Assembly: GCA_023133415.1 (NCBI GenBank)
Contig: JAGLWM010000002.1
Coordinates: 24,081-88,080 of the forward strand
Direction of reading: 5' to 3'
Source of the DNA: Candidatus Pacearchaeota archaeon
Lineage (GTDB): Archaea > Nanobdellota > Nanobdellia > Pacearchaeales > GW2011-AR1
DNA length: 64,000 nucleotides
In this document: piece by piece, positions 3,893 through 61,118 of the stretch
Layout of the letters: every line of letters starts with the position of its first letter
Numbering within the stretch: position 1 is the stretch's first letter
Notes under the pieces: model-generated
Seen by the model: only the letters and a program-made list of their open reading frames with translations
Databases searched by the model: none
What the model was told of the DNA's origin: nothing
Translations under genes and position numbers: made by a program

Positions 3893-4216
3893 CTATTTTA
3901 GTTTTACTGCGGTTCCGTAGGCCAACATTTCGGATGCTCCTTGCATTATCATGGAGGTCGAAAATCTGACTCCGATTATTGCGTCGGCACCCATATCTAT
4001 TGCTTCGTTTATCATTCGGTTGAAGGCTTCTTCTCTTGCTTGGGTTGTCATTTTGGTGTATGTTTTTATTTCTCCGCCCACAATTGTTTTAAGTCCAGCT
4101 AGAATGTCTCGTCCGACATGGCGTGCTCGGATTGTGTTGCCTTTTGCAATTCCTAGAATTTTTGTAACCTTTTTTCTTGGTATTTCTAGTCCCGTTGTTG
4201 TTATTAATTCTTTCAT
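3893..4216 (-). CDS. YbjQ/UPF0145 (DUF74) family protein
   Basis: 107 aa with typical YbjQ-family sequence (GADAIIGVRF...AYGTAVKL). Confidence 0.6.
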   Translation of the reverse strand: MKELITTTGLEIPRKKVTKILGIAKGNTIRARHVGRDILAGLKTIVGGEIKTYTKMTTQAREEAFNRMINEAIDMGADAIIGVRFSTSMIMQGASEMLAYGTAVKLK

Positions 4217-4292
4217 TGATTTCTTTCTTTTTTAGAAAAAAAGAAATTTCTCGCAAGTAGAAAAAACTTCTTTTCCAAAACTATGCTTTGAT
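4217..4292. repeat. Module-A miniature repeat (AT-rich, TTTCTTTTTT-AG-AAAAAAAGAAA hairpin) abutting the start codon of the minus-strand gene
   Basis: Near-identical copies at 6185-6460, 7392-7526, 22356-22476 and 59232-59309. Confidence 0.8.
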
Positions 4293-4466
4293 TCATTTTT
4301 CTTTATCCCTCCTTTTTTCTATTTTGTCTTCTTCTTTGCGGAATAAAATAAGGGTGATTCCAATGAGCGTTGGGATTAGGGCGGGGATTATCGCGGAGGT
4401 TTTTATAAAAATGATTATTCCGAGGATTATCCCGGCAATTCCTAAGAAAATTGATTCTTTTGTCAT
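4293..4466 (-). CDS. Small membrane protein (about 57 aa)
   Basis: Internal Met of ORF 4293..4679. The upstream part of that ORF is a translated module-B repeat. Hydrophobic core. Confidence 0.3.
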   Translation of the reverse strand: MTKESIFLGIAGIILGIIIFIKTSAIIPALIPTLIGITLILFRKEEDKIEKRRDKEK

Positions 4467-4544
4467 GGTTTGGTTTAGTTGTTTTAGTTTATAAGTTTTA
4501 GGTAGGGAAAAACTTTGTTTTTCAGTTGGTAGTTGGTAGTACGC

Positions 4545-4680
4545 TTCGCTTGTGGTGGTTTGTTGCGGTCGCTCGGCACATCCCAAATTGCTTGGCAGTT
4601 CTGCACACCCCAAATTGCGGAGTCTTGGAGCGAGTGTCGGGGCGAATGTGGGGCATGGTTGTTCCGCGTGACTTGGCAAC
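4545..4680. repeat. Module-B GC-rich dispersed repeat (core TTGGCAGTTCTGCACACCCCAAATTGCGGAGTCTTGGGGCGA with CCCCAA/TTGGGG hairpin)
   Basis: Related copies at 8040-8245, 11838-11910, 18340-18410, 20575-20640, 22390-22430, 25210-25310, 56343-56480, 58470-58530 and 6370-6405. Confidence 0.8.
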
Positions 4681-5870
4681 TAAAAAGGTAAGTAAAAAAT
4701 TATTGTGGGTATTAATATTGCGCTCATAAGGAAGCTTCTTCGGGTTTGAAATTCGATGCAGGTAAGGCCGAGTGCTGTTGCGGTTGTTAAGATTATTAGG
4801 CCTTGAATTCCTGTGAAGTAGGTTGTGATTATTATTAGGAAAATTAGGATGATGGTTGATATTTTTGTGTAGGGGATTTTGTGGATTTTTGTCGCGATTA
4901 TTTTTGAAATTTTTAGGGAGAGTGGTATTGTGAGGAGGGATGCCATTATGATTGTTGCTAGAATTGTTACGAGGTTTGTTGTTGTGAGGCTTGTGATTTG
5001 AGAGATTGCGAAGGCTGTTCCTGTTCGGGATTTTTGGAAGAGGTAGAGTGTGACGAATGAGATTGACATAACGAGTGTGTTGATGGAGCCGAGGAGAATT
5101 AAGAATTGTTCGCGGTTTAGTTTTTTTGTTATTGTGGATCCGATGATTGCGGCTTGGCTACTTCCGAGTCCTGGGAAAAATGAACAGATTGGAGAGATTA
5201 AGATTGTTGCTATTGTTGGTTTAATAATTTCTTTTTTGTCGATTTTTAGTTTTTCGATTTTCTGTGGTGGAAGAATTGTTTTGGATTTGATAGAGTGAAT
5301 TATTGTGGAGGTTCCGAAGAGGCCGGTTAGGAGGGGGAGAAGGGGTTGGGATATTCCGAGATTAAAGCTACTCAGCCCGAGGAATCCAGCGAGAGTGAAT
5401 ATGAGGATTGCTTTTATTTTGGATTTTTTTTCGTTATAGATTAGAAAGATTGCGATCCAGATTAGGCTGAATCCCATCATGCGTTGGATGAAAGGGTAGA
5501 GCTTTGGCATAAGGATTATGAAGATTGGGATAATGAGAATGAGGGAGATGATTGCGATGGTTGACCCAAGGAGGGTTAGCTTTAGGGCGTGGTGACCTTT
5601 GCCCTCGAGAAGGAGTTCGTGTCCCGGGAGAGTTCCTAAGCAGGTGTCTTCGTTTGGGGCTCCAAGAAAAATTGCTGGGATGAAGTCGATGAATGTGTGG
5701 GTTATTGCCATTGCGGTTAGGAAGATTAGGAGGGTTGTTGTTGGAAGATTTTGGATGAAGGATATGGCAAGAATGAAGATTGCGATGAGGTTGATGTGGA
5801 TTCCGGGGATGAGGCCGGTGATTGTGCCAGAGAGGATGCCAATTATAAGCGGAATGATTAATTCTATCAT
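4680..5870 (-). CDS. TctA/DUF112-family membrane transporter subunit
   Basis: 396 aa polytopic protein. Motif GAPNEDTCLGTLPGHELLLEGKGHHAL resembles the TctA signature. Confidence 0.5.
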   Translation of the reverse strand: MIELIIPLIIGILSGTITGLIPGIHINLIAIFILAISFIQNLPTTTLLIFLTAMAITHTFIDFIPAIFLGAPNEDTCLGTLPGHELLLEGKGHHALKLTLLGSTIAIISLILIIPIFIILMPKLYPFIQRMMGFSLIWIAIFLIYNEKKSKIKAILIFTLAGFLGLSSFNLGISQPLLPLLTGLFGTSTIIHSIKSKTILPPQKIEKLKIDKKEIIKPTIATILISPICSFFPGLGSSQAAIIGSTITKKLNREQFLILLGSINTLVMSISFVTLYLFQKSRTGTAFAISQITSLTTTNLVTILATIIMASLLTIPLSLKISKIIATKIHKIPYTKISTIILIFLIIITTYFTGIQGLIILTTATALGLTCIEFQTRRSFLMSAILIPTIIFYLPF

Positions 5871-6184
5871 TTATTTTGTGGAAGGATGTTGTTATTAATG
5901 TTGTTGGAGATTTTGGATAATTTGCTAATGATGATTTGTTTTTTGTTTTTGTAGGTATCAGGTTTGCCTTGGAATTTTATCGTGTCGCCTTTTTTGAGGC
6001 TGATGAAGGAAGTATCGAAGAGGATTAGTTCCGTTTTTATATTCTCAAGTTGTATTGTTATTTTGTTGTTTGATGGATTTATGGATTGTATTGTTCCAGT
6101 TTGTGTTGGTTTTGTTTGGGAGAGGAAAATGAGGGTTAGGATTCCGAGGAGGGTTAGAATGAGGGTTAGCTTTTGAAGATTCAT
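5867..6184 (-). CDS. Small secreted/anchored hypothetical protein
   Basis: 105 aa, N-terminal signal anchor. Module-A repeat directly upstream. Confidence 0.4.
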   Translation of the reverse strand: MNLQKLTLILTLLGILTLIFLSQTKPTQTGTIQSINPSNNKITIQLENIKTELILFDTSFISLKKGDTIKFQGKPDTYKNKKQIIISKLSKISNNINNNILPQNK

Positions 6185-6460
6185 TGATTTCTTTCTTTTT
6201 TAGAAAAAAAGAAATTTCTCGCAAGTAGAAAAAACTTCCTTTCCAAAACTTCGTTTTGATTTAATTCCATGATTTCTTTCTTTTTTAGAAAAAAAGAAAT
6301 TTCTCGCAAGTAGAAAAAACTTCCTTTCCAAAACTTCGTTTTGATTTAATTCCATGATTTCTTTCTTTTTAGGCAGTTCTGCAGACCCCTAATGTTTGAA
6401 CTCTGGGGCCAAAAAAGAAATTTCTCGCAAGTAGAAAAACTTAATTTCCAAAAATTTATT
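6185..6460. repeat. Tandem array of three module-A units (about 86 bp each). The third unit has a module-B core inserted in its hairpin loop.
   Basis: Direct tandem copies. No unique spacers, so not a CRISPR array. Confidence 0.85.
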
Positions 6461-6480
6461 TTTATAGTCAATTTTTGCCA

Positions 6481-7458
6481 TTATCTTGTTTGGAATTCTA
6501 TTATGTCTTTGTCTTTTAGTATGTGGTCTAGTCCAATTACTTGACCGCCGAATTTTGATGAGGGTCCCCATACTTTTGCTCGTTTAATTTTTTTTGACAT
6601 TCCTTTTAGGATTTTTTCTGCGGCGTCGTGGAAAGTTGTATCTTTTTTTAGTATCATTGGCTCTTTGCTAGGATCCTTTTTCGGTTCTTTTGTATAGACT
6701 CGGATGATTGGGAATGTTTCGAAGATTTTTTGTTTTAAATGTTTTAGTTGTATTTTAGTTGGAGAGTTTGAAAAGAAAACATAGGAGAGATTCTTGTATT
6801 TTGATTTTAGTGTTGCTTCAATTTTTCGCTTTTCCTTTTCTGAGAGGAGGTCTTCTTTATTGTAAATTATAATTATTTTTGCGTGGGTTCTGTAGATGTG
6901 TTTTTCGGCTTTTTTGATTTGATCGAGGTTGTCGATTATGAGGAGGAGGGTATCTGTTGAGTTGATGAGTGATTTGTCGTGATTTGGAAAAGAGGGTTGG
7001 TCGATGATCTGGATTAATGCGTCTTCGAAATGGAAGGTTCCGAGTTGATGTCGGTGAGTTGTGAAGGGATAGGGGGAGGTTTTAGTTTCTTGGTTTGTTA
7101 GAGTTTTGAAGATTGTTGATTTGCCGGTGTTTGGGAATCCTGCGAGGACGCATTGCATGTCGGCTTTTTTGATTCCGATTTGTGTTGATTTGCCAGATTT
7201 TTTTTGTTTGGCTATGGAGGTTTTTAGTTTTTTGTAACGATTGGTTAGATTTTTTCGCATGTTTTCAGAGGATTTGTGTTTTGGGACTTCTTTCATCATA
7301 ATTTCTAGGTATGCGAGTCTTTCTTCGTCTGTTGTTGCTTCTTGGAATTCCTGCTCGGCTTTTTGGTAGAATGGGGATTGGTTTGTTGATGCTATGATTT
7401 CTTTCTCTTTAGAAAAAATTTCTCTTCCACCCAAAATGGCGTACCTCTGTTGAGGCAA
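6481..7458 (-). CDS. DRG-family GTP-binding protein with C-terminal TGS domain
   Basis: G1 GFPNTGKST, G2 FTT, DQPS motif, TGS-like C-terminus. N-terminal 20 aa overlap a module-A repeat, so the true start may be downstream. Confidence 0.75.
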   Translation of the reverse strand: MPQQRYAILGGREIFSKEKEIIASTNQSPFYQKAEQEFQEATTDEERLAYLEIMMKEVPKHKSSENMRKNLTNRYKKLKTSIAKQKKSGKSTQIGIKKADMQCVLAGFPNTGKSTIFKTLTNQETKTSPYPFTTHRHQLGTFHFEDALIQIIDQPSFPNHDKSLINSTDTLLLIIDNLDQIKKAEKHIYRTHAKIIIIYNKEDLLSEKEKRKIEATLKSKYKNLSYVFFSNSPTKIQLKHLKQKIFETFPIIRVYTKEPKKDPSKEPMILKKDTTFHDAAEKILKGMSKKIKRAKVWGPSSKFGGQVIGLDHILKDKDIIEFQTR

Positions 7459-7607
7459 AGTAGAGAAACTTATTTTCCAAAACTGCGTTTTGATTTAGTT
7501 CCATGATTTCTTTAATACTGGAAGGTTTAAGAGAGTTGTGTCGGCGGCGAGGTGTTTGGGTAATGGGTTTTAGTAAGGTTATTAAATGTGTATGTTTTTA
7601 GAAACTT

Positions 7608-8036
7608 ATGGAGAAGGCGGTTATTTGGTTGAGTGTTTTTATTTTGTTGATTGGGGGAGTTGTAGCGCAGGATGGTTGGGGAGAGATTAATATTGAGGAT
7701 TCGGGGGTTGATGCTCAGATGCCAGGTGAGATGCCAAGTGAGATGCCAGGTGAAATGCCAGGTGAGATGCCAGGTGAGATGCCAGGTGAGATGCCAGGTG
7801 AGATGCCAGGTGAGATGCCAAGTGAGATGCCAGGTGAGGCGGTAGAGGGTGAGGTGCAACAAGAGGTTTTATTGCCTGACGAAAGGGGGGATGGGGAACG
7901 GGTAGCAGTGTCAGGGAATGGGAAATTTTATACTACGGATTTTTATATTGCCTTAGGGATAGGTCTTTTTATTTTAGTTGTAATTGGTATTGTGATTTTC
8001 TTTTTGATTCGAGGACCAAAGAATAAGTGGAAGTAG
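7608..8036 (+). CDS. Secreted acidic repeat protein (MPGE/MPSE x10) with C-terminal TM anchor
   Basis: Signal peptide, 12-nt tandem repeat at 7719-7838, C-terminal TM plus basic tail. Confidence 0.6.
7719..7838 (+). repeat. 12-nt tandem repeat (ATGCCAGGTGAG)x10 inside the CDS
   Basis: Directly visible in sequence. Confidence 0.9.
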
Positions 8037-8039: not shown

Positions 8040-8245
8040 TTCACTTTATGGAAAGGTTCAGCTTTGCTGGAAAGGCTTAATCGCTGTTGCGATTGGAAAA
8101 GCTCATGCTTTGCGTGGGGGCTTGGCTGTTAGTGGTTTAAATGTTGCGGTCGCTTGGCATATTCCTAATTGCTTGGCAGTTCTGCGTACCTCAAATTGCG
8201 GAGTATCGGGGTGAATAAAGGGGTACGGTTTGTCCGCGTTAAGAA
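8040..8245. repeat. Full-length module-B repeat
   Basis: The 5' half matches 25230-25300. The 3' core matches 4560-4680. Confidence 0.8.
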
Positions 8246-8266: not shown

Positions 8267-8956
8267 TTGAGGTTTCTTTTTAATCTTATGAAGCTGGGTA
8301 TTTTGTTTAGTGGAGGGAAGGATTCGACTTTGGCAGTTTGGATTGCGAAGAAAGAGGGTTATGAATTAGGATGTTTGATTTCGGTTGTTTCTAGAAATAA
8401 GGAGAGTTTTATGTTTCATGTGCCGTCGATTAAGAGTGTTGTGGCGCAGGCGGATGTTATGGGAGTGCCTTTGATTTTGAAGGAGACCACAGGGGTTAGG
8501 GAGAAAGAGCTAATAGATTTGGATATCGCTATTGAGGAGGCTCGGGATAGATTTGGAATTGAGGGCGTCGTGACGGGGGCTGTTTGTTCAGTTTATCAGG
8601 CTTCGAGAGTTCAGAAGATTTGTAATAAGTTGGGACTAGAATGCTTTAATCCTCTTTGGCAAAAGGATCAGGTTGAGTTGTTGAGGGAGTTGATTGCGGA
8701 AAAATTTGAAGTGATTGTTGTTGGTGTTGCGGCTTATCCTTTGGATGAAAAGTTTTTAGGGAGGGAAGTTGATAGTGAGTTTATTAATGAGATGGTGAGG
8801 CTGAAGGAGAAGTTTGATATTAATCCGGCTGGAGAGGGTGGAGAATTTGAGAGTTTTGTTTTGGATTGTCCTTTGTTTGAGAGGGGATTAGAGGTGAAGA
8901 GTTTTGAGGATTTTGGGGAGGGGAATTCTTGGAGAAGGGAGATTGAGACAGAATGA
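8267..8956 (+). CDS. Dph6/MJ0570-family PP-loop ATPase (diphthine-ammonia ligase-like)
   Basis: SGGKDS PP-loop. EGGEFESFVLDCPLF resembles the GEYHT.VLD.PLF motif. Start probably at Met 8288. Confidence 0.65.
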   Translation: MRFLFNLMKLGILFSGGKDSTLAVWIAKKEGYELGCLISVVSRNKESFMFHVPSIKSVVAQADVMGVPLILKETTGVREKELIDLDIAIEEARDRFGIEGVVTGAVCSVYQASRVQKICNKLGLECFNPLWQKDQVELLRELIAEKFEVIVVGVAAYPLDEKFLGREVDSEFINEMVRLKEKFDINPAGEGGEFESFVLDCPLFERGLEVKSFEDFGEGNSWRREIETE

Positions 8957-9480
8957 TATTGATTGTTAATGTTTGTTCTGAGAAATTGCATTATTATGAG
9001 TTTGTGAAGCCAATCGAGGATATTTTGAAAGAGGACTTTTTTGTGAAGCATTATTCTGAGTTGAATGATAGCGATTTGGTTAGGGCTGACAGGGTGATTA
9101 TTTGTGGAACGAGTTTGGGAGATGATTCGTTTTTGAAGGATTTGGAAAAATTTAATTGGATTAAAAATTTTGATAAGCCGTTGCTTGGGATTTGTGCCGG
9201 GTTTCAGATTTTGGGTTTGGTTTTTGGTGGAGAATTAAAAAAGAAATTAGAGATTGGATTTTTTCGTGAGACTTTTGAGAAAGAGTTTTTAGGATTAGAG
9301 GGAGACGTTGAAGTTTATCATTTGCATAATAATTATGTTGAGTTTGGGGGAGAGTTTGAGATTTTTGCCGGGAAGAGTTTTCCGCAGGCTGTGAGGTTTA
9401 GGGGCAAGGATTTTTATGGGGTTTTGTTTCATCCGGAAGTTAGGCAGAAAGAAATGATTTTGAGGTTTGTTGGAAAATGA
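8953..9480 (+). CDS. Class I glutamine amidotransferase-like protein
   Basis: GICAGFQ nucleophile-elbow motif and FHPE. Overlaps the upstream gene by 4 nt. Confidence 0.55.
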   Translation: MILIVNVCSEKLHYYEFVKPIEDILKEDFFVKHYSELNDSDLVRADRVIICGTSLGDDSFLKDLEKFNWIKNFDKPLLGICAGFQILGLVFGGELKKKLEIGFFRETFEKEFLGLEGDVEVYHLHNNYVEFGGEFEIFAGKSFPQAVRFRGKDFYGVLFHPEVRQKEMILRFVGK

Positions 9481-10199
9481 GTTTGATTGAGAGCGTTAAG
9501 AGGAAGAAGGAGTTTTCTATGTTGCCAGATTCTATCGTGGAGCGAGCGCTGAAGGAATCTGGTGAGGATGTTAAAGAGGCTCGGAAGTTGCTTCGGAAAT
9601 ATTTTGGAGTTTTTTTGACGAATCGAGTTTTGAAGGGAAGGGGAGATTTGTTAGGGATTCATATATCGTCGAAGAAGAGGGATTATGAGGATTTTTATTT
9701 TAGGATTTTTGAAGGTATGGATAAAATTAGGAGTGTTGTTGATTTAGGCTGTGGGGTAAATGGATTTTCGTATGAGTATTTGAGAGATGTTATTGGGGAT
9801 GTTGATTATATTGGGGTTGAAGCTGCGGGGCAGTTGGTTGAATTAATGAATAAATATTTTGAGGAGAATGAGTTTAGTGCCTGGGCGATTAAGGGGGACT
9901 TGTTTGATATTGATGGGGTTGTTAAAATATTGGAGAAGAGCGCTAAGCCGAGGGTTGTTTTTTTGTTTCAGGTTGTTGATGCTTTGGAGAGTATGGAAAG
10001 AAATTTTTCTAAGAAGTTTATTTTGAAAGTGATGGAGGGATGTGAATGGATGGTTATTAGTTTGCCATTGGTGAGTTTGGGTGGGAGGAAGAAATTTGAG
10101 GTGAGCAGGAGGTGGTTGGTTGATTTTTTAGAGGAGGAGTTTATTGTCGAAAAGGATTTTGAGATGTTTGGGGAAAGGATTTTGATTTTTAGGAGGTGA
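9477..10199 (+). CDS. Putative SAM-dependent methyltransferase
   Basis: VVDLGCGVNG matches class-I MTase motif I. Otherwise unassigned. Confidence 0.35.
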   Translation: MSLIESVKRKKEFSMLPDSIVERALKESGEDVKEARKLLRKYFGVFLTNRVLKGRGDLLGIHISSKKRDYEDFYFRIFEGMDKIRSVVDLGCGVNGFSYEYLRDVIGDVDYIGVEAAGQLVELMNKYFEENEFSAWAIKGDLFDIDGVVKILEKSAKPRVVFLFQVVDALESMERNFSKKFILKVMEGCEWMVISLPLVSLGGRKKFEVSRRWLVDFLEEEFIVEKDFEMFGERILIFRR

Positions 10200-10236
10200 T
10201 AGTTAGTTATTTAAATTCGGATATTTTTTTGTTGGT

Positions 10237-11148
10237 ATGGTTATATATGTTATCGGACATAAGAGTCCGGATAGTGATTCGGTTTGTGCGGCCTTGGCTG
10301 TTGCGGATTTGAAGAGGCAGTTGGGGGATGATGTCGAGGCTCGGGTTGCTGGAGAGATTAATTCGGAGAGTCGGTTTATTTTGGAGAAGTTTGGAGTTGG
10401 TGTGCCTGATATTTTGGAGGATGCGAGTGGTAAAGAGATTATTTTGGTCGATCATACGGATTTGTCGCAGGCTGTTGTTGGCATGGAGAACGCGGAGATT
10501 GTGGGGATTGTTGATCATCATAAGCTTGGGGATGTTACTACAAGCAAGCCGCTCGAGATTTTGGTTCGGCCGCTTGGGAGCACTTGCACGATTATCAAGG
10601 GATTGTTTGATTATTATGAGAAGAGGATTTCTAGGGAAATTGCGGGGTTGATGCTTTGTGCGATTTTGAGTGATAGTGTTATTTTTAGGTCGCCGACGAC
10701 TACAGATGAAGATAGGAGGGTTGCTCGTGAGTTGGCGGAGATTGCAGGGATCGAGAATTTGGAAGAGTTGGGGATGGAGATGTTTAGGGTAAAGTCTGAG
10801 GTTGAAGGGGTTTTGGCGAGGGATTTGGTAATGAGAGATTATAAGGATTTTGAGATGGGCGGGAAACGGATAGGTATTGGGCAGTTGGAGTTGGTTGATT
10901 TGGAGTTGGTTGCCGGAATTAGAAATGAGTTATTGGAGGAGATGAGGAAGTTGAAGGATGAAGGGAGGCATGCGGTGTTTTTGATGTTGACGGATATTAT
11001 GAAGGAAGGAACGGAATTGCTTTGTGTTTCGGATGAGGAAGGTTTGAGAGAGAGGGTTTTTGGAGATAGTGAGGATGGATGGCTTGAGGGAATGATGAGT
11101 CGGAAGAAGCAGGTGGTGCCTGAACTTGAAAAATATTTTTCAAGTTAG
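10237..11148 (+). CDS. ppaC: Family II (Mn-dependent, DHH/DHHA2) inorganic pyrophosphatase
   Basis: GHKSPDSDS, VDHH, LTDHT-like and SPTT motifs. Collinear with PpaC. Confidence 0.8.
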   Translation: MVIYVIGHKSPDSDSVCAALAVADLKRQLGDDVEARVAGEINSESRFILEKFGVGVPDILEDASGKEIILVDHTDLSQAVVGMENAEIVGIVDHHKLGDVTTSKPLEILVRPLGSTCTIIKGLFDYYEKRISREIAGLMLCAILSDSVIFRSPTTTDEDRRVARELAEIAGIENLEELGMEMFRVKSEVEGVLARDLVMRDYKDFEMGGKRIGIGQLELVDLELVAGIRNELLEEMRKLKDEGRHAVFLMLTDIMKEGTELLCVSDEEGLRERVFGDSEDGWLEGMMSRKKQVVPELEKYFSS

Positions 11149-11220
11149 GTGTTGGTATTAGGTCGCTTTGTATATATTTATATTAGAAAGTTATTTAAGT
11201 AAGGCTGATAATTTTTTGTT

Positions 11221-12471
11221 ATGGAATTTGAAAAAAGGGTTTTGGCGAATGGGTTGACGGTTTTGTTTGAGAAGCGGGATGTTGATGTGACTAGTGTGAT
11301 GTTGGGCGTGAAGTATGGGTCGGCTTATGATTCTATTGAGGAGAAGGGGATGGCGCATTTTATTGAGCATTTGTGTTTTAAGGGGACGAAGAAGCGGACA
11401 GCGAAGCAGATTGTTGATGAAGTTGAGAAGATTGGAGGGGAGGTGAATGCTTTTACTCATGAAGAGATTACGGCTTATTATGTTAAGTTGTCGTCGGAGC
11501 ATTTGGATGTGGCAATGGATGTGATTTTTGATATTTTTTTTAGTCCTGTTTTTCCTGAGGGGGATGTTGGAAGGGAGGCGAGTGTTATCTGTGAGGAGAT
11601 TAAAATGGTTAGAGATAATCCGATGAGACATGCATTGGAGAAAATTAAGGAAAATTTGTATGAGGAACCATTCGGGTTTTTTGGTGGCGGGAGGGCTGAG
11701 GTTGTTCGGCGAATGACAAGGAATCAATTGAAGGGGAGGCATGATGAGGTTTATCTTCCTGAGAATTCGGTTCTTTGTGTTGTTGGGAATAATGATTTTA
11801 GCGAGATAATTTCCCTTGCAGAGAAACTTACTTTGGGGGTCAGAAGTCAGAGGTCGGAAGTCGGGGCCGCTCGGCACACCCCAAATACTCTGAGTTCTGG
11901 GGCGAGTCAGAAGTTGGAGGTGCCGGAGATTGTTGGGAAGATTGTTAAGAATGATGAAAAGAGGGCGGGTTTGGAGCAAGCGAATGTTGTGCTTGGTTTT
12001 CATTTTCCGATGGCGAGCGATAAGGAGCGTTATGCTGCGGAGGTTTTTTCGGCGATTTTGGGGCAGGGGATGAGTTCAAAGCTTTTTGCAGAGGTCCGAG
12101 AGAAGAGGGGTTTGGTTTATGGGGTAAAAACGGATTTGGATATGGGGAAGAATTATGGCTATATGGTGATTTGGGCTGGGACAGATCCAGTGAAGGTTGA
12201 GGAGGTGAAGAGTATCTGTTTAGAGGAGTTTGGGAAGATGGGGGAGATTACTGAGGCTGAGTTGGAGGAAGCGAAGGCTCAGGTTGTTGGGAATTGGAAG
12301 GTTGAGTCAGAGGGGTCTAGTGAGACGGCTGTGAATTTGATTATGGAGGAGATTGCAGGGGATGCTAGGGAGTATTATGATTATGAGGATAGAATTGGTG
12401 AGGTGACGCTTGAGGATATTAAGAAGTTGGCTGGGAAGACTGAGTTCGCTTCGTTTAGTTTGGGGCCATGA
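11221..12471 (+). CDS. M16-family zinc peptidase (pitrilysin-like) carrying an in-frame module-B repeat insertion
   Basis: HFIEH inverted zinc motif. Repeat-derived segment at about 11838-11910 is translated as GVRSQRSEVGAARHTPNTLSSGAS. Confidence 0.75.
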   Translation: MEFEKRVLANGLTVLFEKRDVDVTSVMLGVKYGSAYDSIEEKGMAHFIEHLCFKGTKKRTAKQIVDEVEKIGGEVNAFTHEEITAYYVKLSSEHLDVAMDVIFDIFFSPVFPEGDVGREASVICEEIKMVRDNPMRHALEKIKENLYEEPFGFFGGGRAEVVRRMTRNQLKGRHDEVYLPENSVLCVVGNNDFSEIISLAEKLTLGVRSQRSEVGAARHTPNTLSSGASQKLEVPEIVGKIVKNDEKRAGLEQANVVLGFHFPMASDKERYAAEVFSAILGQGMSSKLFAEVREKRGLVYGVKTDLDMGKNYGYMVIWAGTDPVKVEEVKSICLEEFGKMGEITEAELEEAKAQVVGNWKVESEGSSETAVNLIMEEIAGDAREYYDYEDRIGEVTLEDIKKLAGKTEFASFSLGP

Positions 12472-15788: not shown

Positions 15789-17276
15789 TTATTTCTTTTG
15801 AATTTTGAAATAAATAAAAGTTGGGATTTTCATTTGTTTCTCATTTATTTTAATATTTATAAAAATTTTTCTTCCTTCGTGGAAAGCTATGATGTTAAAA
15901 TTTTTTAGCAAGAATGGACTTAAATAATTAGAAAAAGTATGTGAAGGTTCTTGCACTATCAATTGTCCGTCAAATATCGGCAAATTTACAATTTCTTGCG
16001 TATGATAATTATTTTCTTTTTTATATGATAAAAGCATAAGGGGATGAGCTACAATTATCCCTGCTGTCCCATTTTTTTTCAAAACCCTATAAATTTCTTT
16101 AAAGGCAGTTGTCGGATTTTTTGCATAATGAATCGCACAATTACTTATTATAATATCAAATGAATTATTTTGAAAAGGCAAATTATTAAAATTTGCAATT
16201 TGCATATATTTTTTTAAATGAGGATACTTGTTTATCCCTTCCTGTATCATGTTTTTTGAAGAATCAATTCCTATAACTTCTGCACCCCGTAGATAGCAAT
16301 AATTCAAATCATCACCAATGCCACATCCAATATCGAGAATTTTTTTATTTTCTATATTCCCTAATTCTTTTTTTAATAAGTTTATATGTTCCGCATTATT
16401 AATTTCAAACCTTTTTCCTTTGTGGAGATAATCTTGATATTTTTTGTCATATTGTGTTTCATATCTTTTACTACACCTAACAATAATATTATACATACCA
16501 CCTTTGATAAAATTTATAAAAAAATCAACTTTCTTGTTTGGTCTGGCAATAATTTTTTCATCAATTTGAAGTCCGCATTTGTTAAGCCATTCTTCTGCGG
16601 CTTTTTCCGTTTTCCATTCGTAATAATGAAATTTCTTACTAAATGAATCAATTTTGCAAATAGGAATAGATAAAATGAAATTTGATTTATCAGGAGATTT
16701 TTTGACAAGTTGTGATAGATATAATGTAGGGTCTTTAGTGTGCTCAATTGAATCCATAAACAAATATGTATCAAAATTTCCGGGATACTTTTGATTATCC
16801 ATATTATCAATTTTGAAATTAATTTGTTTTTCCCACGAAGGGACTTTGTAGTTTAAGATAATTTTAGCAAAGTTTATTGTCGAGGAATCCATATCAATTA
16901 AAGTCAATTTTTTATTGTCTTGTAATACATATTCAAAAACATATTTAGAGGGTGTTCCAAAACCAATTTCTGCAATTGATTCAGGATTTATTTTATTAAG
17001 AAATTTTATTACAGCATCTTGTCTTATTTGATGATAAGAATTCTTTACTAAATTTAATAAATGGAGTGTTAGATTCATTTCTTTTGTTGAATAAATTTTA
17101 TTATTATATTTTTGCTCAACTGCACACATATCATAATCAATTGCCTTTTCTATAATTTTTTTTTCAGATGAGTTTATGGCTTTAATGAGAAATTTAAATT
17201 CTTGTTTATAGGCAGGATTATTTATTACGAATTTGGTTCTTTGTATTGTTTTTTGTCTTAATTTTATTTTATCCAT
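15789..17276 (-). CDS. Two-domain class I SAM-dependent methyltransferase
   Basis: ILDIGCGIGDD motif I in C-terminal half. Second EIGFG motif in N-terminal half. A-rich composition unlike neighbours. Confidence 0.55.
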   Translation of the reverse strand: MDKIKLRQKTIQRTKFVINNPAYKQEFKFLIKAINSSEKKIIEKAIDYDMCAVEQKYNNKIYSTKEMNLTLHLLNLVKNSYHQIRQDAVIKFLNKINPESIAEIGFGTPSKYVFEYVLQDNKKLTLIDMDSSTINFAKIILNYKVPSWEKQINFKIDNMDNQKYPGNFDTYLFMDSIEHTKDPTLYLSQLVKKSPDKSNFILSIPICKIDSFSKKFHYYEWKTEKAAEEWLNKCGLQIDEKIIARPNKKVDFFINFIKGGMYNIIVRCSKRYETQYDKKYQDYLHKGKRFEINNAEHINLLKKELGNIENKKILDIGCGIGDDLNYCYLRGAEVIGIDSSKNMIQEGINKYPHLKKYMQIANFNNLPFQNNSFDIIISNCAIHYAKNPTTAFKEIYRVLKKNGTAGIIVAHPLMLLSYKKENNYHTQEIVNLPIFDGQLIVQEPSHTFSNYLSPFLLKNFNIIAFHEGRKIFINIKINEKQMKIPTFIYFKIQKK

Positions 17277-21671: not shown

Positions 21672-22355
21672 TTATTTTTTACTTATCTTTTTCATTTCGT
21701 TAATATTATCGATTAGAGGGTTCATTAGTTTCGCGACGGTTCCGTGGAGATTGTCTAGATCTTTGTGTATCATTGCGGAAGATTCTCCGAATTCCCCTAT
21801 TTTTCCTAGAACTGCTTGTTGGAGTTGCTGAATTGAATTTTCTATTCTTTTTAGTCGGTCATCGATGTCATCAACTTTATTTTGTATTTGATTTTTGAAT
21901 GAGACAATGTCTCCGATTTTTGATTTGTAGTTTTCTAGTTTTTCGGTTGCTATTTGTTCGGCTATTTCAGATATTGTTCCGGCGTCAAAAGATCCCTGTG
22001 GTGCATAGTAGTCTTGTTCGGGATAGGCTTGCGGTGTTTCTTGATAGTATGCTTCTTGAGGTGGCAAGGGTTGAGGTGGCGAGATTTCTGGAGCTTGAGG
22101 CTGTGGCGTTGGGGGTATTTCTTGGGCTGGAGCTTGAGGCTGTGGAGATGGCTGTGGCATTGGTATTATTGAAGGTTGCATCCCTTCGGGAGTTGTTTGA
22201 GTTTCCGGGGGAGCCACAGCATTTTTGATCTTGGCCTGATTTAGGGAATCGTTTATTTCTGAAGGAGAGATTCCTTCATTTTGAAGCTGTGCCATTATTT
22301 CGGTATCAGATTTATTTTGTTGTTGCATTTCTATTACTCGATCAAGTGTTGCCAT
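21672..22355 (-). CDS. P/Q-rich protein with C-terminal coiled coil
   Basis: Start set at Met of MATLDRV. The upstream 17 codons of the track ORF are a translated module-A/B repeat. Confidence 0.5.
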   Translation of the reverse strand: MATLDRVIEMQQQNKSDTEIMAQLQNEGISPSEINDSLNQAKIKNAVAPPETQTTPEGMQPSIIPMPQPSPQPQAPAQEIPPTPQPQAPEISPPQPLPPQEAYYQETPQAYPEQDYYAPQGSFDAGTISEIAEQIATEKLENYKSKIGDIVSFKNQIQNKVDDIDDRLKRIENSIQQLQQAVLGKIGEFGESSAMIHKDLDNLHGTVAKLMNPLIDNINEMKKISKK

Positions 22356-22476
22356 GATTTCTTTCTCTTTAGAAAAGAGAAATTTCTCTCGCGCCGTTCG
22401 GCACACCCCAAATTGCGGAATGCTGGGGCGAGTAGAGAAACTTTCTTTCCAAAACTTCGTTTTGATTTAATTCCAT
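22356..22476. repeat. Composite module-A repeat with embedded module-B core
   Basis: A-left + B-core + A-right arrangement. Confidence 0.8.
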
Positions 22477-26923: not shown

Positions 26924-28165
26924 ATGGAACAAGTATTAAAAACAAAATGGAAGCAAATGAATAGAGAGGAGCGAGGCAGACTACTCTACAACACCGTTAA
27001 AATAGTTAAAACTTCTACAGGTTGGAAAGTCCCTTCTCAAACACGAGGTGGCTCTGGAGACAGATACACTGTTAGATTTAATGGACATAAGCCTAAGTGT
27101 AATTGTCCAGATTGTTATATGAGAAAGAAAAAATGTAAACATATCTATGCAGTAGAGTTTTATATTAAACAAGAAATAAACAAAGAAGGTAGATTAAAAC
27201 AAACAAAGGGAATAAGAGTAACTTACGGGCAAAAATGGAATGCCTATGACAAATCACAAACTAACGAAAAATTAGTTTTTATGAAACTCCTAAAAGATTT
27301 AACAACTTTCGTTGAGCAACCTAAATATAAATTCGGTCGTCCAACTTTACCAATGTCCGAAATGGTTTTTAATTCGGTTATGAAAATCTATTCAACTTTC
27401 TCTCTTAGAAGATTCATGTCAGATAGCAAGATTGCGAAAGAATTTGGCTTGATTAATTTTGTGCCTTGTTATTCTTCAATTGGGCATTTTTTACAAAAAA
27501 AGGGATTGACTCCTGTTTTGATTAACCTAATTAAAACTAGTGCTTCTCCATTAAAAGACGTTGAAACTGATTTTGCTTGTGATGCTTCTGGTTTTTCGAC
27601 TTCAAGATTTGCCAGGTGGTTTGATACAAAATGGGGTAAAGAAAAGAAATATAGAATTTGGTTAAAAGCACACATTTGTTCTGGAGTGAAAACGAATATT
27701 ATAACTTCTGTAGAAATTACAGAGGGTCACGCAAATGATAGTCCTCAGCTTTCTTCATTAGTTCGGCAAACTGTCGAGCGGTTTGAGGTGAGGGAAGTTA
27801 GCTGTGACCGAGCATATAGTTCTAAGCAGAACTTACAGCTCATCGCAGATGAGGGGGCAACCCCCTTCATCCCCTTTAAATCAAATGTAAAAGGAAAACG
27901 TACTGGCGGTGGTGCTTGGAAAAAGATGTATCATTATTTTATGTATAAACATGAAGAATTTCTAAAGCATTATCACAAGCGTTCAAATGTCGAGACTTGT
28001 TTTCATATGATTAAAACTAAATTTAGGGACAATCTCCGAAGTAAAACCCAGACTGCTCAAGTTAATGAATTGCTTTGTAAAATTTTAGCACATAATATTT
28101 GTGTTGTGATTCAGGAAGTTAATGAGCTTGGACTTAGTGGGGAGTTTGTTGTGGAGGAAAAATGA
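26924..28165 (+). CDS. IS4/IS5-like DDE transposase with N-terminal SWIM zinc finger
   Basis: CNCPDCYMRKKKCKH zinc finger. YHKRSNVETCFHMIK fits the Y(2)R(3)E(6)K signature. Acidic DDE residues. Confidence 0.65.
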   Translation: MEQVLKTKWKQMNREERGRLLYNTVKIVKTSTGWKVPSQTRGGSGDRYTVRFNGHKPKCNCPDCYMRKKKCKHIYAVEFYIKQEINKEGRLKQTKGIRVTYGQKWNAYDKSQTNEKLVFMKLLKDLTTFVEQPKYKFGRPTLPMSEMVFNSVMKIYSTFSLRRFMSDSKIAKEFGLINFVPCYSSIGHFLQKKGLTPVLINLIKTSASPLKDVETDFACDASGFSTSRFARWFDTKWGKEKKYRIWLKAHICSGVKTNIITSVEITEGHANDSPQLSSLVRQTVERFEVREVSCDRAYSSKQNLQLIADEGATPFIPFKSNVKGKRTGGGAWKKMYHYFMYKHEEFLKHYHKRSNVETCFHMIKTKFRDNLRSKTQTAQVNELLCKILAHNICVVIQEVNELGLSGEFVVEEK

Positions 28166-29661: not shown

Positions 29662-29663
29662 TT

Positions 29664-44709: not shown

Positions 44710-44988
44710 TTATCCGACGACTCTTCTGTAGTCGATGAGCTCGACGGAAGAGACTCCTGGAATTTTGCTTAGTGCGTTTTCTACTTTGTCGGATTGTTCA
44801 TCTTCAGAAAGTGCAATTGTTATGATTAATGCCTTTAGTCCGAATGCGATTGGTTCTTCTTTTGCTTCATTGAAGATTCCAGACTCGAAGGATTCTACTG
44901 TTTTTTTTATTTTTGTTCTAAGTTCTTCTAGATTTATGTCTATGTTTTCAGGCATTATTTTAAATTGTATTCCTACTGTGGCCGCCAT
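44710..44988 (-). CDS. ef1b: Elongation factor 1-beta (aEF-1beta)
   Basis: IMPE...EEPIAFGLKAL...GVSSVELID matches the aEF1B family. 92 aa. Confidence 0.85.
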   Translation of the reverse strand: MAATVGIQFKIMPENIDINLEELRTKIKKTVESFESGIFNEAKEEPIAFGLKALIITIALSEDEQSDKVENALSKIPGVSSVELIDYRRVVG

Positions 44989-45065
44989 TCGTATGTGAAC
45001 CTAACGGTTTTCCTGACAAATCATTTTTCTCTTGAGGGTGATTGTTTTGCAATATTTATTTTTCA

Positions 45066-45212
45066 TCATGGGCCTTTGTATCCACATTTTGGACATTTAT
45101 ATTCGATTGAAAGACTTCTGCATTTGTCGCATCGCAGGATTTCGTTGCCGCATTTTGGGCAGGGGAATCTTACTATTTTTGATGTTTCTTTTGTACAGCT
45201 TGTGCATTTCAT
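45066..45212 (-). CDS. Zn-ribbon protein (48 aa, four CxxC)
   Basis: Not in the ORF track. MKCTSCTKE...CPKCGNE...CDKC...CPKCGY. Lies just upstream of ef1b. Confidence 0.5.
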   Translation of the reverse strand: MKCTSCTKETSKIVRFPCPKCGNEILRCDKCRSLSIEYKCPKCGYKGP

Positions 45213-56342: not shown

Positions 56343-56480
56343 GTATTAGGCCGCTCAGCATATTCCTAATATTTGGCAGTTCTGCATACCCGTTGGATTG
56401 GGCACTAGAATCTGCAAGTAGGCATCCCAAATTGCTTGGCAGTTCTGCACACCCTAAATTGCGAAGTCTTGGGGCGAATT
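56343..56480. repeat. Two tandem module-B cores
   Basis: GGCAGTTCTGCA(T/C)ACCC...TTGG(G)GCGA twice. Confidence 0.8.
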
Positions 56481-56617
56481 TTAGGGTAGGATTTGGGATT
56501 TGGTATTTGGAAGGGAACGGGGTATCGGGATATTTTTTCTTTTGTCAAATAAAAGAAATGCTCACATATTTTTTAAAGAAAAGGAAGTAAAAAATATGCA
56601 ATTTCCAGAAGTTTTTA

Positions 56618-58314: not shown

Positions 58315-58530
58315 TTATCTTCTTCTAAGAGGGGCTGATCGAGGAGGTGCGTCACGGATTTGAGTGAATTTATAGTGAACCGATTTTGTTTTCAAATTGC
58401 ACTTTTTACACTCGTCTTGCATAGTATATATTTTGCATTTTGGGCATTTTTTGAGTTTTGTACCGCTCAGTGTACCCCTAATCTTTTGGCAGTTCTGCAC
58501 ACTCCAAATTGTGGAATTTTGGGGCGTCAT
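58315..58530 (-). CDS. nop10: H/ACA RNP subunit Nop10 with repeat-derived N-terminal extension
   Basis: LKKCPKCKIYTMQDECKKCNLKT matches the Nop10 zinc ribbon. First 23 codons come from module-B sequence. Start overlaps the aIF2alpha stop (ATGA). Confidence 0.7.
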   Translation of the reverse strand: MTPQNSTIWSVQNCQKIRGTLSGTKLKKCPKCKIYTMQDECKKCNLKTKSVHYKFTQIRDAPPRSAPLRRR

Positions 58531-61116: not shown

Positions 61117-61118
61117 AT

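Follow-up and report, generated by a model that had tools for sequence, protein, structure and literature searches.

Module A, a hairpin-forming repeat in the 64-kb stretch of DNA analysed here (the window), appears from its sequence context to be an insertional leader cassette: a relay upstream open reading frame (uORF) carried by the element would hand ribosomes to the downstream gene by termination–reinitiation, a reading that we hold with slightly better than even confidence. The cassette would be a small, non-autonomous element of Nanoarchaeota-type DPANN archaea, producing the layout native promoter or upstream stop, original start codon, element, new ATG and gene. It may bring its host a benefit, e.g. 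joint tuning of translation-machinery genes, or may be a well-tolerated passenger.

Copies, placement and fold of module A

The window contains exactly seven copies of module A at five loci, all on the minus strand (Table 1). An unfiltered covariance-model scan of the window scored these seven at 55–103 bits, the next best match reaching 18.9 bits, and a 25-nt core of the element occurs five times in the window as compared to none in 100 shuffles. Each window copy closes with ...GAAAGAAATC(A), flush against a gene start, and the 3′ end quoted in an earlier note on this DNA (...GAAATTTCTTTTTTTCTAAAAAAGAAAGAAATCA-ATG) is exact for the window subtype. The genes behind the copies encode YbjQ (YbjQ_1, 3e-36 in Pfam), a small secreted protein (preceded by three tandem units), DRG (MMR_HSR1 plus TGS), a P/Q-rich protein and aIF2alpha (EIF_2_alpha plus S1). 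The DRG gene starts with ATA (7393–7395), its orthologues with ATG. The earlier note had described the three-unit array at the secreted protein gene and a module-B core within a hairpin loop of its third unit; both are present, with the extents given in Table 1, and the middle and proximal units are identical across the overlapping segments of families D3 (53 nt) and D4 (48 nt). The replicon is strongly skewed, and all five loci share a single strand of it.

Table 1. Copies of modules A, B and C in the window, with their associated start codons, uORFs and promoter element
Feature	Position	Strand	Remarks
Module A, YbjQ_1 copy	4217–4296	−	Type III, 5′ part 6 nt shorter; gene ATG 4214–4216
YbjQ_1 copy, 5′ ATG	4294–4296	−	Overlaps stop (ATGA) of upstream small membrane-protein ORF
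YbjQ_1 copy, uORF		−	27 codons; TGA 4213–4215 overlaps gene ATG
Module B, stand-alone copy	4561–4642	+	One of eight B copies
Module A, gene-proximal tandem unit	6185–6270	−	Type III; small secreted protein gene ATG 6182–6184
Proximal tandem unit, uORF		−	From 6268–6270 to TGA 6181–6183; ATGA overlap with gene ATG
Module A, middle tandem unit	6271–6355	−	85 nt; 3′ ATG is next unit's 5′ ATG
Module A, distal tandem unit	6356–6481	−	Type I-like, degenerate hairpin 1
Distal tandem unit, 5′ ATG	6479–6481	−	Overlaps DRG stop (TAATG)
Module-B core within distal unit	6368–6409	+	In hairpin-3 loop
Module A, DRG copy	7396–7504	−	5′ ATG 7502–7504; orthologues L001, L075
DRG copy, uORF		−	31 codons; TAA 7409–7411, 13 nt before gene start
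Module C	within 7396–7504		Net 27-nt insert (TTGCCTCAACAGAGGTACGCC...) in hairpin-2 loop of DRG copy
Module A, P/Q-rich protein copy	22356–22476	−	Type II; gene ATG 22353–22355
P/Q-rich copy, insert	22388–22429		39-nt, B-like core, hairpin-2 loop
P/Q-rich copy, 5′ ATG	22474–22476	−	1 nt past upstream gene's stop
P/Q-rich copy, uORF		−	35 codons; TAA 22369–22371, 13 nt before gene ATG
Module A, aIF2alpha copy	59232–59317	−	Type III, 86 nt from 5′ ATG to gene ATG; 5′ ATG 59315–59317
aIF2alpha copy, uORF		−	29 codons; TGA 59228–59230 overlaps gene ATG 59229–59231 (ATGA)
Native TATA box (TTTAAATAA)	59339–59347	−	−30 to −22 from 5′ ATG of aIF2alpha copy
Other module B copies	8142–8223, ~11860–11912, ~56350–56400, 56405–56486, 58455–58536	+	

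Collection scans added ∼50 further copies, from Nanoarchaeota, Pacearchaeota and Woesearchaeota MAGs and from metagenomes. Measured from 5′ ATG to gene ATG, the basic form is 82 nt long and the window subtype 85–86 nt. All 57 copies examined adjoin a gene ATG or the next tandem unit in the sense orientation, with the spacing of element to gene ATG constant to within 1 nt; tandem arrays occur in the window and at loci L029, L040 and L080. None of the 57 is antisense, intragenic or placed at an isolated 3′ end, and no copy was found at any of many non-start ATGs in intergenic DNA. The repeated cassette locked to start codons of unrelated genes that the earlier note proposed is thus borne out, and the equal abundance at 3′ ends or inside genes that it had named as the contrary outcome is not what the 57 copies display. 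The downstream genes are mostly ribosomal-protein, translation and transcription genes, with enrichment for S3Ae, S24e, S27ae, L44e, L10e, L11, aIF2alpha, aEF1beta and SRP54, and also for Spt4, RpoP, aCPSF1, FtsZ and DRG.

At gathering thresholds, Rfam 15 (riboswitches, ribozymes and leaders included) gave no match across the whole window, and at E ≤ 10 it gave only chance-level matches (at most 22 bits, against thresholds of 47–72). No tRNA or tmRNA was found, and neither the RNA family library nor the literature searched has anything comparable to module A.

The copies share three hairpins, with 99.3% of cells paired; hairpin 1 begins 12 nt from the 5′ ATG, and the last, hairpin 3, stops 6–7 nt short of the gene ATG. 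Covariation comprises very few events, namely a compensatory UA-to-CG change in hairpin 3 and a U-G/C-G alternation in hairpin 2 that pairs in the sense strand only, and fold energies are barely better than those of shuffles (z −0.5 to −2.4). We conclude that the three hairpins are real and favor the sense strand. They may be insertion signals, or may modulate uORF translation, the stability of the mRNA or reinitiation.

Minimum-free-energy folds also produce a long hairpin, mutually exclusive with the three-hairpin form. It would suit a cis-regulatory leader RNA (riboswitch-like, protein-binding or an attenuator) that co-regulates translation and transcription genes through a two-fold switch, in which the long hairpin could free the A-rich stretch before the AUG and oligo-U could bring about premature termination. 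The downstream gene enrichment agrees with such a switch, as do the T5–T7 runs of types I and III, the higher conservation of the element than of the adjoining CDS and the presence of the element at the same genes in different MAGs. We nonetheless consider it unlikely, since orthologous genes often lack the element, both loops tolerate inserts of 24–63 nt, type II copies lack long T runs, the alternative fold keeps no consistent register across types and has weak z-scores, and Rfam offers no match. A leader RNA is moreover compatible with the uORF relay, to which it would add a regulatory layer.

Promoters and insertion at start codons

In ordinary genes (n = 197), TATA-like hexamers peak at −28 (76 genes, against a background of ∼3 per position), the promoter motif is TTTAWAAA at −29 to −22 from the ATG (a full archaeal promoter would add an A-rich BRE at −34 to −32), and a Shine-Dalgarno signal is absent; by these marks the genomes that bear module A look essentially leaderless. 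For module A-bearing genes the TATA peak falls at −30 to −27 from the element's own 5′ ATG. Scored up to that 5′ ATG, the native promoter matrix exceeds 5 bits in 39% of copies, as compared to 42% of ordinary genes. Scored up to the gene ATG, the element has a median of −2.7 bits with 0% above 5 bits, where the medians are 4.0 bits for ordinary genes and −4.0 bits for random positions. At −29 to −22 from the gene ATG the element reads AATTTCTT, and none of the 101 ordinary-gene promoters in which a TATA hexamer is clear has its C at −24. Because nothing in the element resembles a promoter at the register set by the gene ATG, it is better described as a leader than as a promoter, and is very probably part of the 5′ leader. 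At aIF2alpha, the TATA box listed in Table 1 is presumably the promoter of the transcript. Among the 44 distinct copies with enough upstream sequence, 23 have an upstream ORF stop within −2 to +4 nt of the element's 5′ start, including 8 ATGA overlaps and 5 one-nucleotide TAATG-type overlaps.

The earlier note had spoken of a mobile promoter/leader cassette with a TATA-like stretch ∼30 nt upstream of the start. The leader part very probably stands, and insertion is supported by filled and empty orthologues (see below); the promoter part finds no support, with a random-level matrix score and AATTTCTT where native promoters have TTTAWAAA. We regard as decidedly improbable a promoter whose BRE/TATA the element itself would supply, within hairpin 2 and the 5′ arm of hairpin 3, for a leaderless transcript from the gene ATG. 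It would explain the fixed spacing as a TATA-to-start distance, and it has in its favor a purine-rich AGAAA followed by a T-rich run at about −32 to −18, a pyrimidine-A step at the ATG, the 20 of 44 copies that sit directly behind an upstream ORF without a strict TATA box upstream, and the L11 gene of L005, where a normal TATA box is followed by no more of the element than its final 24 nt. Yet beyond the −24 C and the matrix score, the sole TATA-like stretch (TCTAAAAA) lies ∼11 nt too near the ATG, a canonical TATA box precedes the element's 5′ ATG, inserts in the hairpin-3 loop (L075, L094, L077:2081 and window 6356–6481) would wreck the geometry while the genes are intact, and conservation of the uORF frame is left without explanation.

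Filled and empty orthologous sites were found for 11 genes (RpoP, FtsZ, L11, aEF1beta, S24e, S27ae, SRP54, L44e, YbjQ, the secreted protein and the MAIGY gene). In both states one and the same promoter keeps its spacing to the start; the occurrence of filled and empty orthologues shows precise insertion at the start codon. The element is MITE-like in being small (82–86 nt), multicopy (7 in 64 kb and 57 overall), free of a transposase and variably present. Only the start codon is repeated at both element ends, the fourth base being mismatched in most copies, and the S24e copy has GTG as its 5′ codon and ATG as its 3′ codon. Terminal inverted repeats are absent (the terminal 28 nt score 4 against the reverse-complemented other end, with a shuffle mean of 5.4); the two ends share a direct repeat, GAAnnAAATCA, and lack complementarity. 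At orthologous filled loci the element is 89–98% identical and the adjoining CDS 69–81%. Subtypes follow the gene and not the genome, a pattern suggestive of prolonged vertical retention under constraint. A Pfam scan of 20 window ORFs found no HUH/Y1 transposase, the sole transposase among them being DDE_Tnp_1 (26924–28165).

Several of these traits fit a purely selfish hairpin transposon, mobilized as single-stranded DNA by an HUH enzyme and inserting 3′ of ...ATG without host function, for which the uORF geometry would be the mere price of toleration: presence and absence at orthologous sites, ends without inverted repeats or clear target duplication, subterminal hairpins in strict orientation, tandem arrays (as though the 3′ ATG of one unit served as target for the next), same-insert subfamilies at different genes, the confinement of the window loci to one strand and the existence of degenerate copies. 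We judge it improbable, as the scanned ORFs offer DDE_Tnp_1 alone, intergenic non-start ATGs carry no copy, old orthologous copies keep their high identity and subtypes track genes. An RNA-processing cassette, in which a ribozyme or host nuclease cuts the leader before the gene AUG and restores a leaderless mRNA, is very improbable. Apparent reliance on leaderless initiation, an element ending exactly at the AUG and tandem units that could be released one by one speak for it; but no Rfam ribozyme or other RNA family matches even at E ≤ 10, tRNA-like structure is lacking, and the kept uORF frame goes unexplained. Bulge-helix-bulge introns fit no better: the element ends, unpaired in all folds, are non-complementary, which precludes a splice motif between them, and promoter-proximal copies would leave an upstream exon of no more than 3 nt.

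As a proposed insertional leader cassette, module A can be set beside the Rickettsia palindromic elements, small non-autonomous hairpin repeats in the reduced genomes of host-dependent organisms that persist in translated sequence by keeping the reading frame (PMC10969869). It likewise is small, hairpin-forming, non-autonomous and frame-keeping. However, those elements form in-frame fusions at many protein positions, while module A occurs only at the start codon, where it closes its reading frame at a stop codon and provides a new ATG, leaving the host protein unchanged. Correia elements of Neisseria are short multicopy repeats, usually sited immediately before genes and transcribed as part of their 5′ leaders, that form hairpins and alter expression (PMC10969869). 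With these and other promoter- or leader-forming MITEs, module A has in common that it is short, multicopy, gene-upstream and hairpin-forming. Correia elements have terminal inverted repeats, a TA target duplication, both orientations, variable distance to start codons and sigma-70 promoters, whereas module A lacks both inverted ends and a native-type promoter, occurs in one orientation only and directly adjoins the ATG. IS200/IS605-derived, REP/RAYT and IS91/Helitron elements lack inverted ends and a clear target duplication, bear subterminal hairpins and insert in an orientation set by a short target, and IS91/Helitron elements form tandem multimers. Module A resembles such HUH-type elements in its ends, hairpins, orientation and tandem units, but the likeness is one of resemblance only: its hairpins 1 and 3 are dissimilar, and a 3–4-nt target alone cannot explain restriction to start codons. 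With all copies co-oriented with their target ATG, selection would yield the same picture of subterminal hairpins and orientation.

A proposed relay uORF

In the proposed relay, to go by motif positions, the native promoter would start transcription such that the mRNA opens with the element's 5′ AUG; in operon copies that AUG would instead overlap or abut an upstream stop codon. Frame conservation suggests that ribosomes would start there as on the uninterrupted gene and would translate the 22-codon uORF across hairpins 1 and 2 and the 5′ arm of hairpin 3. Termination would follow at UAA in the hairpin-3 loop, 13 nt before the gene AUG, or in type III at a UGA overlapping the gene AUG (AUGA), and by analogy with published distance data the gene would be reinitiated through termination–reinitiation coupling.

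Among 49 distinct copies tabulated, 43 have a recognizable 5′ start codon; from this ATG the uORF runs to a stop 13 nt before the gene ATG in 28, 14 nt before it in 2 and in a 4-nt overlap (the ATGA of the window subtype) in 7, so that 37 of 43 end at +13, +14 or −4 nt, within reinitiation range. The basic 22-codon uORF encodes MELNQNxVLExKF[F/L]YLREIS[F/L]F; the peptide is probably not selected, given that types differ by frameshifts and that variable codons freely change amino acids. The relay is broken in the distal tandem unit of the window (6356–6481), whose uORF meets a stop within the insert, 33 nt short of the next ATG; by early stops in L001:1915–2081 and L070; by ATA in place of the 5′ ATG in L011 and L064:9718; and by stops 10–11 nt inside the gene in L029 and L019.

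These stop-to-start geometries match experimentally working termination–reinitiation pairs of Haloferax volcanii and E. coli, which have a 4-nt overlap or a gap of at most 13–14 nt (PMC6728339; PMC10666635). The known pairs are real genes; the upstream partner in module A is a 22–29-codon frame on a repeat element. Reinitiation in H. volcanii is 40–60% at a 13/14-nt gap and near zero at 22–23 nt (PMC10666635). By these figures a 13-nt gap would roughly halve reinitiation in Haloferax, which is odd for highly expressed ribosomal-protein genes. In mycobacterial leaderless short-ORF attenuators the transcript opens with a short ORF's AUG, and translation of that ORF governs the downstream gene (10.1101/834739; PMC4633059), an opening like that proposed for module A. 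The mycobacterial uORFs are, however, gene-specific and sequence-diverse, the polycysteine ones sensing an amino acid, whereas module A is one conserved cassette at many unrelated genes.

We more tentatively suggest, as an unlikely extension, that module A is an element homing to start codons, which would recognize where transcription or translation of leaderless genes starts, and that it was co-opted as a shared translational throttle; homing might act on the single-stranded DNA of open promoters, or involve an RNA intermediate that joins at the 5′ AUG of an mRNA. If so, expression of ribosomal proteins and translation factors would rest on reinitiation downstream of a shared relay uORF, a prokaryotic counterpart, in host-dependent archaea, of uORF-based global control.

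Inserts in the hairpin loops keep the uORF frame, their lengths (24–63 nt) all being multiples of three; stop codons are scarce in all their frames, which leaves the lengths as the only informative feature, and several may share ancestry, which reduces the number of independent events. ATG-to-ATG spacing accordingly shifts from 82 nt to 85, 106, 109, 112 (three different variants), 121 or 145, and from 86 nt to 83 or 80, every difference being a multiple of three with the same stop kept. Subfamilies with one common insert occur at different genes. All eight module B copies of the window lie on the plus strand, two of them as cores inside A units; two of eight in A loops is an enrichment, while elsewhere unrelated inserts fill the same two loops, and selection for frame-keeping insertions confined to loops would give the picture that the earlier note took to suggest that B targets A hairpins. 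As in the Rickettsia elements, module B is also found in frame within an ORF, here one for a Peptidase_M16.

Module A in the window and in related genomes

The earlier note described a repeat abutting the start codons of unrelated genes, and this is borne out: repeat finding and alignment delimit seven copies of module A (a hairpin-rich element of ∼82–86 nt), and an unfiltered covariance model (CM) retrieves exactly seven in the whole window, at 55–103 bits and all on the minus strand, with no degenerate copies elsewhere in the window (next best match, 18.9 bits). The 25-nt core occurs five times in the window, as compared to none in 100 shuffles. On the gene strand every window copy ends in ...AAAGAAAGAAATC(A), flush with the start codon (Table). 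Alignment also confirms the three-unit tandem array reported before the secreted protein gene; two of its units are identical, and the distal one (6356–6481) carries the core of a second repeat, module B, in its third-hairpin loop. The P/Q copy has a B-like core within its second-hairpin loop, and in the DRG copy that loop holds a different insert, module C.

Table. Genes behind module A, and copies of module B, in the window
Feature	Position	Strand	Context	Pfam
YbjQ_1 gene	ATG 4214–4216	−	preceded by module A	label confirmed
Small secreted OB-like protein gene	ATG 6182–6184	−	preceded by three tandem module A units	no significant match
DRG-type GTPase gene	start 7393–7395, reads ATA in this genome	−	preceded by module A	label confirmed
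P/Q-rich protein gene	ATG 22353–22355	−	preceded by module A	no significant match
aIF2alpha gene	ATG 59229–59231	−	preceded by module A	label confirmed
Module B	4561–4642	+		
Module B	8142–8223	+		
Module B	∼11860–11912	+	in frame in Peptidase_M16 ORF	
Module B	∼56350–56400	+		
Module B	56405–56486	+		
Module B	58455–58536	+		
Module B core	6368–6409	+	inside a module A unit	
Module B core	22388–22429	+	inside a module A unit	

The annotated N-terminus of the DRG-type GTPase, which had been seen to overlap module A, is an ORF extended into the element: ORF callers give this “extended N-terminus” because of an in-frame TTG (7456–7458) inside module A. The start codon itself is ATG in the L001 and L075 orthologues (L numbers denote related loci from DPANN MAGs and metagenomes), and the next in-frame ATG lies >30 codons downstream of the ATA. 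All five window loci are minus-strand genes, though about half of the genes are plus-strand, and across 41 related loci the sense strand of module A is C-rich at 30. Both patterns could reflect an orientation bias relative to replication, though operon structure confounds them.

With one genome per species, an exact-pattern scan returned 13 copies from approximately nine Nanoarchaeota, Pacearchaeota, and Woesearchaeota MAGs, and a looser anchored pattern, whose chance matches served as controls, found many more in metagenome contigs. The CM gives 55 matches of at least 31.8 bits, all at DPANN-like loci, and nothing above 24 bits in ∼400 kb of unrelated contigs; a viral-contig scan yielded chance matches only. 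Each copy ends at the ATG of a real gene or of the next tandem unit. The genes concerned encode ribosomal proteins (S3Ae, S24e, S27ae, L44e, L10e, and L11), aIF2alpha, aEF-1beta, SRP54, Spt4, RpoP, aCPSF1, FtsZ, DRG, thioredoxin, and a few membrane and unknown proteins. At one locus a unit precedes each of the three genes of the conserved Spt4–S24e–S27ae cluster, and tandem arrays also occur in L029, L040, and L080. For copy-number polymorphism of the window array, the secreted protein was not on record in other assemblies of the same population. The only other contig with YbjQ, an independent assembly of this population (L110; Logan contig SRR13892600_12632), terminates within module A, 22 nt upstream of the ATG of YbjQ, and so the repeat breaks up assemblies.

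Insertion sites and promoter position

Orthologues of many genes that bear module A (“filled”) are without it (“empty”) in other genomes. Module A precedes RpoP in L004, L042, and L077 but not in L005, L070, or L003; FtsZ in L002 but not in L071 or L012; and L11 in L004 but not in L071, L077, or L070. For aEF-1beta, L073 is filled, L009 is empty, and the window copy of the gene lacks module A; S24e and S27ae each have the element in L064 and are without it in L058. Both states also occur for SRP54, L44e, YbjQ, the secreted protein, and the MAIGY gene. The empty-site layout is TATA-(∼21 nt)-ATG-gene; filled sites have the same promoter at the same distance to an ATG, followed by module A, a second ATG, and the gene. 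For S24e, the empty allele starts with GTG overlapping the Spt4 stop codon (GTGA), and the filled allele keeps the GTGA at the 5′ end of module A, with a new ATG at the 3′ end. Judging from these alleles, module A seems to supply the 3′ ATG itself and to sit directly behind the native start codon. It has no terminal inverted repeats, and beyond the start codon the copies show no consistent target-site duplication.

At L11 in L005 (1340–1440) only the last 24 nt of module A are present, behind a normally spaced TATA box, and the same span holds other small hairpin modules (CACCAGATCACCTACTGG); this remnant may reflect a way for a gene to become leaderless again once module A has inserted. In the window, aEF-1beta (44710–44988, minus strand) is preceded by a spacer of ∼80 nt (44989–45070) after the stop codon of an upstream Zn-ribbon gene. 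The spacer has no detectable similarity to module A, which stands there in L073; in L009 the Zn-ribbon stop is directly followed by the ATG.

Module A had been taken for a mobile promoter/leader cassette with a TATA-like stretch ∼30 nt upstream of the gene ATG. The filled and empty sites uphold a mobile cassette, very probably part of the 5′ leader, and the promoter part does not survive comparison with 197 ordinary genes (ORFs from these loci, each 120 codons or longer). In this set TATA-like hexamers peak at −29 to −27 from the ATG (76 genes at −28 versus ∼3 per position elsewhere), the consensus comprises an A-rich BRE (−34 to −32), TTTAWAAA (−29 to −22), and T at −1, and the Shine-Dalgarno signal is absent (n = 197). 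By motif position, these genomes therefore look almost entirely leaderless. At genes with module A, the TATA-like peak lies at −30 to −27 from the 5′ ATG, the start codon at the upstream end of the element. A promoter matrix built from the ordinary genes scores a median of 4.0 bits at their starts (42% above 5 bits) and −4.0 bits at random positions (1%), as compared to 1.3 bits for the span ending at the 5′ ATG (39%) and −2.7 bits for the span inside module A ending at the gene ATG (0%). The sole TATA-like stretch in the element, TCTAAAAA, is ∼11 nt too near the gene ATG, and genes are still intact behind copies in which inserts in the loop of the third hairpin (H3) lengthen the ATG-to-ATG spacing by 24–63 nt. 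Module A is therefore not a promoter of the native type but sits downstream of one. A Shine-Dalgarno role for GAAAGAAATC was also rejected, with no such signal at any gene of these genomes and a poor match to the usual anti-Shine-Dalgarno sequence.

The upstream frame, the hairpins, and their inserts

From the 5′ start codon a reading frame (uORF) continues through module A. Among 49 distinct copies tabulated, it ends at a TAA in the H3 loop 13 nt before the gene ATG in 28, 14 nt before it in two, at a TGA overlapping it (ATGA) in seven, and at another position in six; the remaining six have no recognisable 5′ start codon. The 13-nt class has 22 codons, MELNQNxVLExKF[F/L]YLREIS[F/L]F. The ATGA class includes the window copies at 4217, 6185, and 59232, which belong to type III, the main window subtype (85–86 nt from ATG to ATG). 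The basic spacing is 82 nt; lengthened forms have 85 (5′ MKK variant), 106, 109, and 112 (three different insert variants), 121 (the B-bearing window copy), and 145 nt (L077:2081), and 86-nt type III copies are also shortened, to 83 and 80 nt. All these differences are multiples of three and each form keeps the same stop beside the gene ATG, which has a chance probability of ∼1e-3 to 5e-5, taking at least six to nine independent events. Single-base differences shift the frame to the ATGA geometry, for example in type III (which has three more bases inside the element and, at 86 nt, an additional A ahead of the ATG) and in two +1 variants, L039 and L064:9208.

The setting of the 5′ start codon resembles that of an ordinary start: in ∼12 copies a TATA box stands at leaderless distance from it, and in 23 of the 44 copies whose upstream sequence is long enough an upstream ORF stops −2 to +4 nt from it (8 ATGA overlaps and 5 one-nucleotide overlaps of the TAATG type among them). 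In Haloferax volcanii reporters, reinitiation reaches 40–60% at a 13/14-nt gap and is about zero at 22–23 nt (PMC10666635); both module A geometries are therefore inside the working range. An insertional leader with a relay uORF would link the native start to the new gene ATG by termination-reinitiation. We lean slightly towards this full mechanism and are more confident of the narrower claim, a start-codon insertion that is transcribed as a leader. Exceptions to the relay are the distal array unit (the B insert contains the stop, leaving 33 nt to the following ATG), L001:1915 (premature stop), L011 and L064:9718 (ATA in place of ATG), L070, L029:2000, and L019. A conserved functional uORF peptide was rejected, as types differ in frame and the variable codons change the amino acid. 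The 51-aa ORF of the array shares no words with any database protein.

Folding of 33 uninterrupted copies with RNAalifold, together with an explicit count of pairs, supports three hairpins: H1, CAAAAC-nnn-GUUUUG; H2, UUU(U/C)UC-UACUUGC-GAGAAA; and H3, UUUCU(U/C)UUU-loop-AAA(A/G)AGAAA. Across them 99.3% of cells are paired. One H3 pair changes from UA to CG on both sides (20 versus 13 sequences), H1 has one two-sided switch in a single sequence, and in H2 U-G and C-G pairs alternate. On the opposite strand the U-G pairs would become C-A mismatches, so it is the sense strand that folds. This support comes from very similar sequences with few evolutionary events, and fold energies barely beat shuffles (z −0.5 to −2.4). 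Minimum-energy folds contain a competing long hairpin, in which the H1 3′ arm and junction pair with the H3 5′ arm in a register that varies by subtype. Pairing of the H2 5′ arm with the H3 3′ arm, tried for the linked T/C variants, works only in type II; descent more likely accounts for these variants.

Inserts, in whichever copy they are seen, always occupy the H2 or H3 loop. Those in L001, L009, L075, L077, L094, L099, L101, and the window (7396–7504) share a small hairpin motif, TTGCC-stem-loop-stem-GGTAC, with stems CCTC/GAGG, CCC/GGG, or CCTTC/GAAGG, and look like a separate family of structured modules. Module B (GGCAGTTCTGCACACCCCAAATTGCGGAGTCTTGGGGCG) is more GC-rich than A and restricted to this genome (it was not found in 40 related loci). 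Its eight copies all lie on the plus strand, irrespective of how the neighbouring genes are oriented. Apart from the two in A loops and one within the Peptidase_M16 ORF, they are intergenic. Two of eight copies in ∼1% of the sequence is an enrichment, and both lie exactly in loops, as would follow if B targeted A hairpins; other genomes have unrelated inserts in the same loops with the uORF frame kept, and selection therefore explains the pattern as well as targeting does. The short B core in the Peptidase_M16 gene (ORF 11221–12471, ∼residues 213–230) lies in frame there in the manner of Rickettsia palindromic elements.

Possible spread, known systems, and window composition

At orthologous filled loci module A is 89–98% identical, as compared to 69–81% for the first 240 nt of the adjoining CDS. 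Subtype tends to follow gene (type II at the P/Q gene and most S3Ae genes, type I at most MAIGY genes), which suggests long retention. Type III is confined to a few genomes, at genes that elsewhere are empty or carry a different subtype, and the C insert found at the DRG gene recurs at the P/Q-rich, MAIGY, and presenilin-like genes; S3Ae in L099 has a diverged, C-like insert. This distribution, the common C insert, and the identical array units suggest ongoing spread or conversion. Either selection for a host function or selection for tolerance combined with mobility signals may lie behind these patterns.

Module A has no match in Rfam at gathering or permissive thresholds, full-text literature searches returned nothing matching it, and a recent MITE review makes no mention of start codons, uORFs, or leaderless genes. 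No tRNA or tmRNA was found, and a bulge-helix-bulge intron, tRNA-like processing, or a known ribozyme had no supporting structure or match. In kind, module A comes nearest to Rickettsia palindromic elements, which persist by reading-frame retention; to Correia-type MITEs, which form leaders and promoters; to hairpin-dependent single-strand transposons, which share with it the lack of inverted ends and a fixed orientation; and to mycobacterial leaderless uORF attenuators and termination-reinitiation gene pairs. Module A lacks the terminal inverted repeats that define MITEs and does not score as an archaeal promoter, and its geometry is that of a reinitiation uORF. Small repeats of these kinds are known; the insertion logic and translational design are not described in the sources searched.

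If the model holds, an almost wholly leaderless genome can gain 5′ leaders through a small insertion at the start codon, and the gene survives because the repeat relays ribosomes along a short frame that it carries. The loci would then form a natural, many-times-replicated test system for archaeal termination-reinitiation and leaderless initiation, with dozens of filled/empty allele pairs, geometries of +13, +14, and −4 nt, and broken variants. Coordinated control of the translation machinery may be involved; literature searches returned no such regulatory RNA element for these organisms. In practical terms, module A is a source of misannotated N-termini (e.g. the DRG ORF) and of assembly breaks in DPANN metagenome bins.

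Synonymous sites are extremely strand-asymmetric across the whole window (e.g. 8267–12471, plus; 4680–7395, minus). At third codon positions, outside the no-skew blocks, most genes of the plus strand have a GC skew between +0.66 and +0.92 and most of those on the minus strand one between −0.55 and −0.82, and AT skew runs in the opposite direction; the plus strand is therefore rich in G and T for genes of either direction. Low-GC blocks without skew (15789–17276, 26924–31853, 56908–57420, and 59938–63903; GC 0.24–0.35, above 0.31 only in 26924–28165) hold a methyltransferase, a DDE_Tnp_1 transposase (26924–28165), an N6_Mtase/Eco57I gene, and a type I restriction-modification set (PDDEXK, Methylase_S, and N6_Mtase), and are probably recently acquired islands. 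At 7693–7860, ∼12 copies of a 12-nt tandem repeat, GAGATGCCAGGT, encode an EMPG repeat in ORF 7608–8036.
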